In this document: positions 6,743-7,265 of the stretch, in pieces
Layout of the letters: every line of letters starts with the position of its first letter
Position numbering within the stretch: position 1 is the stretch's first letter
NCBI GenBank assembly: GCA_037441475.1
Contig: JBBISB010000001.1
Span: 456,418 to 488,417 of the forward strand
From: Candidatus Iainarchaeum sp.
GTDB taxonomy: Archaea > Iainarchaeota > Iainarchaeia > Iainarchaeales > CSSED10-239
Direction of reading: 5' to 3'
Length of the DNA: 32,000 bases
Notes under the pieces: model-generated
Seen by the model: only the letters and a program-made list of their open reading frames with translations
Databases searched by the model: none
What the model was told of the DNA's origin: nothing
Position numbers and translations under genes: made by a program

Positions 6743-7265
6743 ATGATAAATATATTAAAATTAGATCACAGGCCTTTTAGAGATAAAAGAATAACTACAC
6801 ATTGTGCTTTAGTATCCCGTGCTTTTGGAGCAGATTGTTTTTATTACTCTGGAATTGAGGATAATGTTTTTGAAAAAAACATAAAAGGTATTGTTGGGCA
6901 ATGGGGGTGAATTTAAAACAACTTTTTTAGAAAAACCAACAGACTTTGTAAGTAAATTTAAAGGCACTATTGTTCATCTTACGATGTATGGGGAACAGAT
7001 TGTCTCAAAAATAGAAAAAATTAAAAAAGAAAACTTAACTAAAGATCTTTTGATTATTGTAGGCGGTCCAAAGGTAAGTAGATTTTATTATGAGCACGCA
7101 AACTACAACGTATCTGTTACAAACTAACCGCATAGTGAGGTGGCTGCGCTTGCTATCATTCTTAATTTTTTAAATCCTGGTACCATATATTCTGAAAATT
7201 TTGAAAATAAAAAAATTAAACTAGAACCTACTAACGATGGTAAAAATGTAATCTCCTTAAAATAG
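6743..7265 (+). pseudogene. trm56: tRNA (cytidine56-2'-O)-methyltransferase aTrm56 (SPOUT), disrupted by one frameshift and one in-frame TAA
   Basis: 6743-6907 encodes MINILKLDHRPFRDKRITTHCALVSRAFGADCFYYSG...GQWG and then hits TGA. The reading continues in another frame from the G5 run at 6903-6907 (GGEFKTTFLEK...GTIVHLTMYGEQI...LLIIVGGPKVSRFYYEHANYNVSVTN) up to TAA at 7125-7127. It then continues in that same frame with PHSEVAALAIILNFL... to TAG at 7263-7265. From memory, the Trm56 family motifs are LGHRPxRDKRxTTHVAL, RWGG, VHLTMYG and NQPHSEVAAL. The TAA sits at the Gln of NQPHSE. Confidence 0.8.

Follow-up and report, generated by a model that had tools for sequence, protein, structure and literature searches.

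Probable Recent Loss of the tRNA Methyltransferase Gene trm56 in a Small DPANN Archaeal Genome

Results

The trm56 Locus

In the 32,000-nucleotide stretch of archaeal DNA analysed here (the window), three consecutive open stretches at 6743-7265 on the forward strand amount to one gene of the Trm56 family. The N-terminal piece (6743-6907, +) spans 55 codons from the ATG at 6743, reads MINILKLDHRPFRDKR...GQWG and includes the conserved HRPxRDKR loop; its last codons are CAA TGG GGG (QWG), directly followed by TGA at 6908-6910. The middle piece (6909-7124, +; 72 codons, EFKTTF...NVSVTN) lies one base (+1) off the first, and the C-terminal piece (7128-7265, +; 45 codons, PHSEVAALAIIL...VISLK), which runs to the natural stop codon, TAG at 7263-7265, is now out of reach of translation that begins at the start of trm56. 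Two lesions lie between the pieces. Lesion 1 (6903-6910, +) comprises a G5 run at 6903-6907 that resulted when the Trp-Gly-Gly codons lost 2 nt, together with the out-of-frame TGA at 6908-6910; lesion 2 (7125-7127, +) is a TAA nonsense codon on the invariant Gln of the NQPHSE motif. Re-reading of the open frames returned the coordinates given in the original prediction for the gene, the G5 run and the TAA, every one of them correct, as well as the 45 codons that it had described as open between the TAA and the TAG at 7263-7265.

The identification as Trm56 held for all three pieces. With the Pfam Trm56 profile (PF01994), whose curated cut-off for family membership is 25 bits, the middle piece scored 70.8 bits (E 1.2e-19, profile positions 5-76) and the C-terminal piece 35.2 bits (E 1.3e-8, positions 78-119); joined, with the TAA read as Q, the two reached 123.4 bits (E 6.2e-36) over positions 5-119 of 119. 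The profile does not cover the first stretch, and there the 55 codons matched residues 1-55 of Pyrococcus horikoshii Trm56 (PDB 2yy8; E 3e-12), to which the sequence from the middle piece onward aligned at residues 70-174. The N-terminal piece was also 85% identical to residues 1-55 of Trm56 from Candidatus Forterrea multitransposorum. The Arg-rich loop of the N-terminal half, DHRPFRDKRITTH, aligned to 2yy8 and is invariant in the family alignment; in the P. horikoshii enzyme this loop carries the catalytic Arg (PMC5372735).

Known members of the family (aTrm56; COG1303, PF01994) include P. horikoshii PH0461 (2yy8), Archaeoglobus fulgidus AF_0751 (2o3a) and Pyrococcus abyssi PAB1040. The window gene shares their domain and their length, 174 aa when corrected for the deletion and the stop, and it keeps the HRPxRDKR loop and the HLTMYG, GGPKV and NQPHSE blocks. 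Unlike these enzymes, it lacks an uninterrupted frame of about 175 codons: the frame breaks after codon 55 and meets a TAA at codon 129. Because the frame is broken twice, we classified the locus as a pseudogene of the Trm56 family and not as a working member; its product would end after 55 residues, and activity would not be expected of it.

The gene is orthologous to that of its relatives by synteny, since it shares the order trm56-TFE with three of them (G001, G005 and G006) and MutS lies on its other side in G006. In the window, intact bacterial-type MutL and MutS genes (1986-6277, -) lie directly upstream of a tRNA cluster and trm56.

Comparison With Intact Relatives

The host genome contained a single PF01994 match, trm56 itself, with one internal TAA in it. 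Trm56 was found in 34 of 40 sampled relatives, all 34 copies being open frames, and in 56 of the 58 phylum genomes with a completeness of 90% or more, where no copy had an internal stop. Two genomes without a Trm56 match (G002 and G012) were considered as further losses within the genus and family and rejected; the flanking TFE gene is missing from them too, and an assembly gap is most likely.

An alignment of 26 sequences bore out the similarity to Trm56 homologues that PF01994 and 2yy8 had indicated, and placed both lesions precisely. The column of the TAA is Gln in 25 of 25 relatives, and in a DNA alignment the codon at this position is CAA in all five congeners, in agreement with the prediction that the TAA sits on the conserved Gln and that a single C-to-T transition of CAA would produce it. 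The WGG motif is nearly invariant in the same protein alignment, and there the window is one residue short. At this point CAA TGG GGT/GGC GGT/GGA in the congeners stands against CAATGGG--GGT in the window, from which lesion 1 is a 2-nt deletion that created the G5 run. The prediction had located a frame break at this run and the need for a frame change, and both stood; the idea of a one-base change in an existing run did not, the change being the 2-nt deletion.

The closest intact orthologues, found in a large protein collection and as proteins only, were two sequences of 174 aa. One from JGI (P0001) is identical to the window gene at 163 of 172 positions (95%) and is the closest, and one from Logan (P0109) at 157 of 172; they read QWGGEF and QWGGKF, respectively, both contain NQPHSE, and its Gln is also kept in a further orthologue (P0002). 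Searches for contigs of the same species in JGI metagenome and GTDB genome scans returned none, the best matches being 70-71% identical. The congeners are 75% identical, a distance at which saturation of synonymous sites would be expected.

When the differences between the window gene and P0001 were assigned to branches with five outgroups, four changes fell on the window branch and five on the P0001 branch. Amino-acid changes on the window branch thus showed no excess and no acceleration over the nearest intact relative, and every family-invariant residue besides the Gln at the TAA is still present. These results are in keeping with the claim that the lesions are recent. Three of the four window-branch changes follow the TAA and affect positions that carry one and the same residue in all five outgroups, which may be a weak hint that the tail of the gene is already unconstrained. 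Since P0001 and P0109 are intact at such close range, both lesions appear from the protein comparison to have arisen after a split about 5% deep in protein sequence. In the comparison with sister genomes that the prediction had called for, trm56 is intact in every relative with a match, and the lesions are specific to the window gene.

Gene Decay Across the Host Genome

The host assembly comprises 769 kb (about 0.77 Mb) in two contigs (C1 and C2) with 28% GC, and its completeness by marker count is 89.5%. Its nearest named relatives are Candidatus Forterrea multitransposorum (CP045477, hereafter G003), a complete genome of 839,632 bp, and "Ca. ainarchaeum" MAGs. These relatives place the host in the Diapherotrites/Iainarchaeota lineage of DPANN archaea (PMC5905446).

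To survey decay, ORFs were called in the host and in G003 and compared by tblastn in both directions. Among the 596 G003 proteins with a good match, 40 were broken in the host, with a total of 56 internal stops and 25 frame changes; in the reverse control with host proteins against G003, 6 of 604 were broken and frame changes numbered 0. Collapsing lesions within 90 nt of each other left 60 events, which sit in 40 genes where about 55 would be expected. At least two events were found in 16 genes; the expectation was 4.2, and none of 5000 length-weighted simulations went above 11. Median identity was 70.6% for broken and 78.7% for intact genes (p = 0.008). The broken genes are accessory ones, including an ABC-2 transporter operon, GlmS, PRPP synthase, TctA, MscS, a Na/H exchanger, DsbA, cyclophilin, pilus ATPase and platform genes, and a group II intron reverse transcriptase, and no ribosomal protein, RNA polymerase subunit or aminoacyl-tRNA synthetase occurred among those with a Pfam match. 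This clustering of lesions in accessory and less conserved genes indicates gene decay and not uniform sequencing error, and for trm56 itself it points to real gene decay as opposed to sequencing error or recoding. The MutS (2.5 kb) and MutL (1.7 kb) genes near trm56 are free of lesions, and loss of mismatch repair through these two genes therefore does not account for the burst of pseudogenes.

Damage was also seen in other genes for RNA modification. A bacterial-type MnmA-like tRNA 2-thiouridylase (PF03054 in G003; C1:11796-12522) has a frameshift near 12208-12218 and its last third is missing. A SpoU-type SPOUT methylase of 291 aa is present in G003 and G004, and the host keeps its first 69 codons (C1:48973-49179); what follows them is rearranged sequence and not an N gap, and PF00588 had no match anywhere in the host genome. 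With at least two other RNA-modification genes damaged besides trm56, the data fit a wider erosion of this gene class.

Several further loci in the window deserve mention in their own right. The gene at window 18119-19130 (C1:474536-475547) is that of a PLP-dependent enzyme, its G003 orthologue matching PF00291; it carries 11 lesions, about nine in-frame stops and two frame changes, between intact neighbours, and these are clearly older than the trm56 lesions. A topoisomerase I gene (19233-21245, -) with Toprim, Topoisom_bac and zinc ribbon domains stops where the G003 orthologue has a Glu followed by about 35 more residues, and a short C-terminal truncation is possible. Another gene that looks frameshifted lies at 24508-25391 (+), where ORFs of 191 and 142 aa overlap in different frames; the 191-aa ORF has a weak SpoIIM match (E 1.9e-5).

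Search for Another Route to Cm56

2'-O-methylcytidine at position 56 (Cm56) is a hallmark of archaeal tRNA and is made by Trm56 (COG1303) in most archaea (PMC5372735; PMC7912444). Pyrobaculum aerophilum has no Trm56 and makes Cm56 by a C/D-box sRNP (Renalier et al., 2005, as cited in PMC5372735 and PMC7912444). These sources uphold the background on which the original prediction had drawn, and it had proposed a search of the genome for a second trm56 and for a C/D-box guide to the tRNA T-loop; neither was found in the host assembly.

A PF01994 search of the assembly (89.5% complete) yielded no second trm56. The protein machinery for guided methylation is present, all in open frames: fibrillarin (PF01269, E 3.5e-49), Nop5 (PF01798, E 4.1e-34) and L7Ae (PF01248, E 2.3e-26), with two intact genes of the L7Ae family. 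C56 is kept in all 38 tRNAs with a recognisable T-loop. An exact T-loop antisense element with the G five bases upstream of CUGA had no match on either strand of the 769-kb assembly. A relaxed search of both strands, which asked for 8 or more pairs out of 10, counted G:U as a pair and tolerated one mismatch each in box D and box C, gave four matches, all inside long ORFs; mononucleotide shuffles gave more (13-22). Both searches detect recognisable boxes in an 89.5%-complete assembly, and an atypical guide would escape them; a second trm56 copy or a guide RNA may possibly lie in unassembled sequence.

A general C/D scan of both strands returned one clean intergenic sRNA candidate at C2:54570-54650 (+). 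It has TGATGA as both C and C' boxes, CTGA as both D' and D boxes, and GGC/GCC pairing in a terminal stem; with up to one mismatch allowed, the assembly contained no target for it. As a guide for C56 it was rejected. Its D' guide contains TTGAAC, the register puts U at the target position, and no tRNA matches. The best T-loop antisense match, C1:61185, with 11 pairs followed by CTGA, was likewise rejected, as it lacks a C box and an ORF of 185 codons encloses it; in addition, the T-arm is nearly palindromic.

Among the tRNA genes themselves, tRNA-Trp (C1:176305-176513) has a 135-nt intron without obvious C/D boxes. At C1:255853-255928, adjoining tRNA-Ile(GAU), ARAGORN predicts a tRNA-Ile whose anticodon is UAU.

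Discussion

Our analysis suggests with good confidence that the locus is a young unitary pseudogene of trm56, which encodes the stand-alone SPOUT methyltransferase for 2'-O-methylcytidine at tRNA position 56. Two independent mutations would have hit the gene in a Forterrea-like DPANN lineage after its split from relatives that are 95% identical. One, in the WGG motif, would be the loss of 2 nt from its GGN GGT codons, which shifts the frame after codon 55; the other, a C-to-T transition, would have changed the invariant Gln codon of NQPHSE from CAA to TAA. Each lesion by itself removes the C-terminal part of the domain, with the most conserved motif in it, and by analogy with solved Trm56 and SPOUT structures this part would be the site of the knot and the cofactor pocket. 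The gene probably died in a genome-wide episode of decay in which about 40 of some 600 comparable genes, nearly all accessory, were broken.

The main competing account of the lesions is that trm56 is intact in the organism and that they are assembly or sequencing errors, or a minority allele in the MAG consensus; the sequence would then be TGGGGTGGT (or G7) at 6902-6908 and CAA at 7125-7127. The source is a scaffolded MAG with three 100-N gaps, lesion 1 lies within a G run, and an artefact would look much like a gene that is otherwise perfectly conserved and has no decay beyond two lesions. Against this, repair of the frame takes 2 nt, unlike the usual one-base error in run length, the relatives have GGT GGT and no long homopolymer there, and lesion 2 is a substitution. 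Two lesions fall within these 520 bp and none in the adjoining MutS and MutL genes, which matches the genome-wide clustering in weakly constrained accessory genes. Furthermore, the source listing records trm56 fragments of 55 aa and 77 aa from both NCBI and Logan, on two contigs each. The 77-aa product needs the deletion and the TAA together, so a separate Logan re-assembly, in which the same two fragments are on record, appears to reproduce both lesions. The original prediction had named assembly error as an alternative for the frameshift, and the size of the change, the clustering of lesions and the Logan fragments together weaken it to a reading that we consider unlikely.

If the lesions are real, the gene might still be expressed by recoding, which the original prediction had also raised at a low level. 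The ribosome would slip by -2 (or +1) at GGG-UGA on the G5 run and a near-cognate tRNA-Gln would read the UAA as Gln, so that a doubly recoded trm56 supplied a little active Trm56 and a low level of Cm56. The site has some attraction on paper, in that a -2 slip from the GGG at 6905-6907 would let tRNA-Gly re-pair perfectly on the G5 run and restore exactly WGGEF, with the in-frame UGA in the A site; the TAA stands exactly at the Gln position with C as the next base and an open frame downstream, and a functioning recoded gene would be as undecayed beyond its two lesions as this one is. Neither recoding feature is conserved, however: P0001, P0109, P0002 and all the congeners have a plain in-frame gene with CAA, and the G5-UGA site was created by the deletion itself, and relatives at 91-95% identity have nothing similar. 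The same ribosome would need to undergo two inefficient events, and a Gln codon is a common site of nonsense mutation in a genome of 28% GC, CAA to TAA being one transition. As for the code, TAA ends 350 of 532 long ORFs (66%) and is thus the main stop, no suppressor tRNA with a stop anticodon occurs among the 39 tRNAs of the host, and all three in-frame stops (27 TAA, 18 TAG and 11 TGA) are scattered over the 40 broken genes. An altered code in which TAA means Gln was rejected, TAA being the usual terminator and in-frame stops of the three kinds occurring only in broken genes. Recoding as a source of functional Trm56, through the slip and the near-cognate tRNA-Gln, is accordingly highly improbable and its earlier suggestion unsupported, the site being unconserved and the suppressor tRNA absent; GGG-UGA on the G5 run is, all the same, a plausible site of spontaneous slippage, and a trace of read-through product is conceivable.

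A further explanation accepts the death of trm56 and holds that Cm56 is still made by a C/D-box sRNP guide, as in P. aerophilum, the gene having been redundant before it decayed. This would agree with the presence of open fibrillarin, Nop5 and two L7Ae-family genes, with at least one canonical intergenic C/D sRNA candidate (C2:54578) and with the Pyrobaculum precedent (PMC5372735; PMC7912444). Yet the exact arrangement of antisense and CUGA is absent from the 769-kb assembly, the relaxed matches all lie inside long ORFs at a rate below that of shuffled controls, the guides of the C2:54578 candidate do not place C56 at the target position, and the best antisense match lacks a C box and sits within an ORF. 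Guided methylation of C56 in this host thus seems quite unlikely. The host resembles P. aerophilum in having fibrillarin, Nop5 and L7Ae without a working Trm56; it differs in that a guide RNA for C56 was not found in it and that it has a fresh pseudogene instead of an absent gene. P. aerophilum is a hyperthermophile, whereas the host is a mesophilic-type, AT-rich DPANN archaeon with a reduced genome.

Returning to the young pseudogene, since no second trm56 and no guide for C56 were found, Cm56 is likely absent, and we infer with somewhat better than even chances that the tRNAs of the host lack it and that the cell tolerates this. A reported viability of the trm56 deletion in Haloferax, for which PMC2584109 gave no confirmation, carries no weight in this inference.

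Young pseudogenes are known from genomes in reductive evolution, such as those of the recently host-restricted bacteria Sodalis and Mycobacterium leprae. The genome studied here is like these in having many fully recognisable genes with one to a few frameshifts or nonsense codons, concentrated in accessory functions and set among intact core genes. It is unlike them in being archaeal and very small already. Ca. Forterrea multitransposorum, the nearest relative with a complete genome, has almost no such pseudogenes (6 of 604 in the control, with 0 frameshifts).

In kind, trm56 is an ordinary pseudogene, mildly notable for its target, and the claim rests on a metagenome assembly. The original prediction had called its loss notable, which holds mildly for that reason; with about 40 genes broken in this genome, the case stands out less than it had seemed to. 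The target is nearly universal, since 56 of 58 high-quality genomes in the phylum have Trm56, and the textbook exception, Pyrobaculum, keeps Cm56 by another route. The gene is at the same time a single instance within an unusual wave of decay that left a DPANN genome with about 40 young pseudogenes. A fresh loss of trm56 with no detectable backup suggests that Cm56 may be dispensable in a small, AT-rich and probably symbiotic archaeon, and the broken gene would serve as a natural knockout for asking what Cm56 does.
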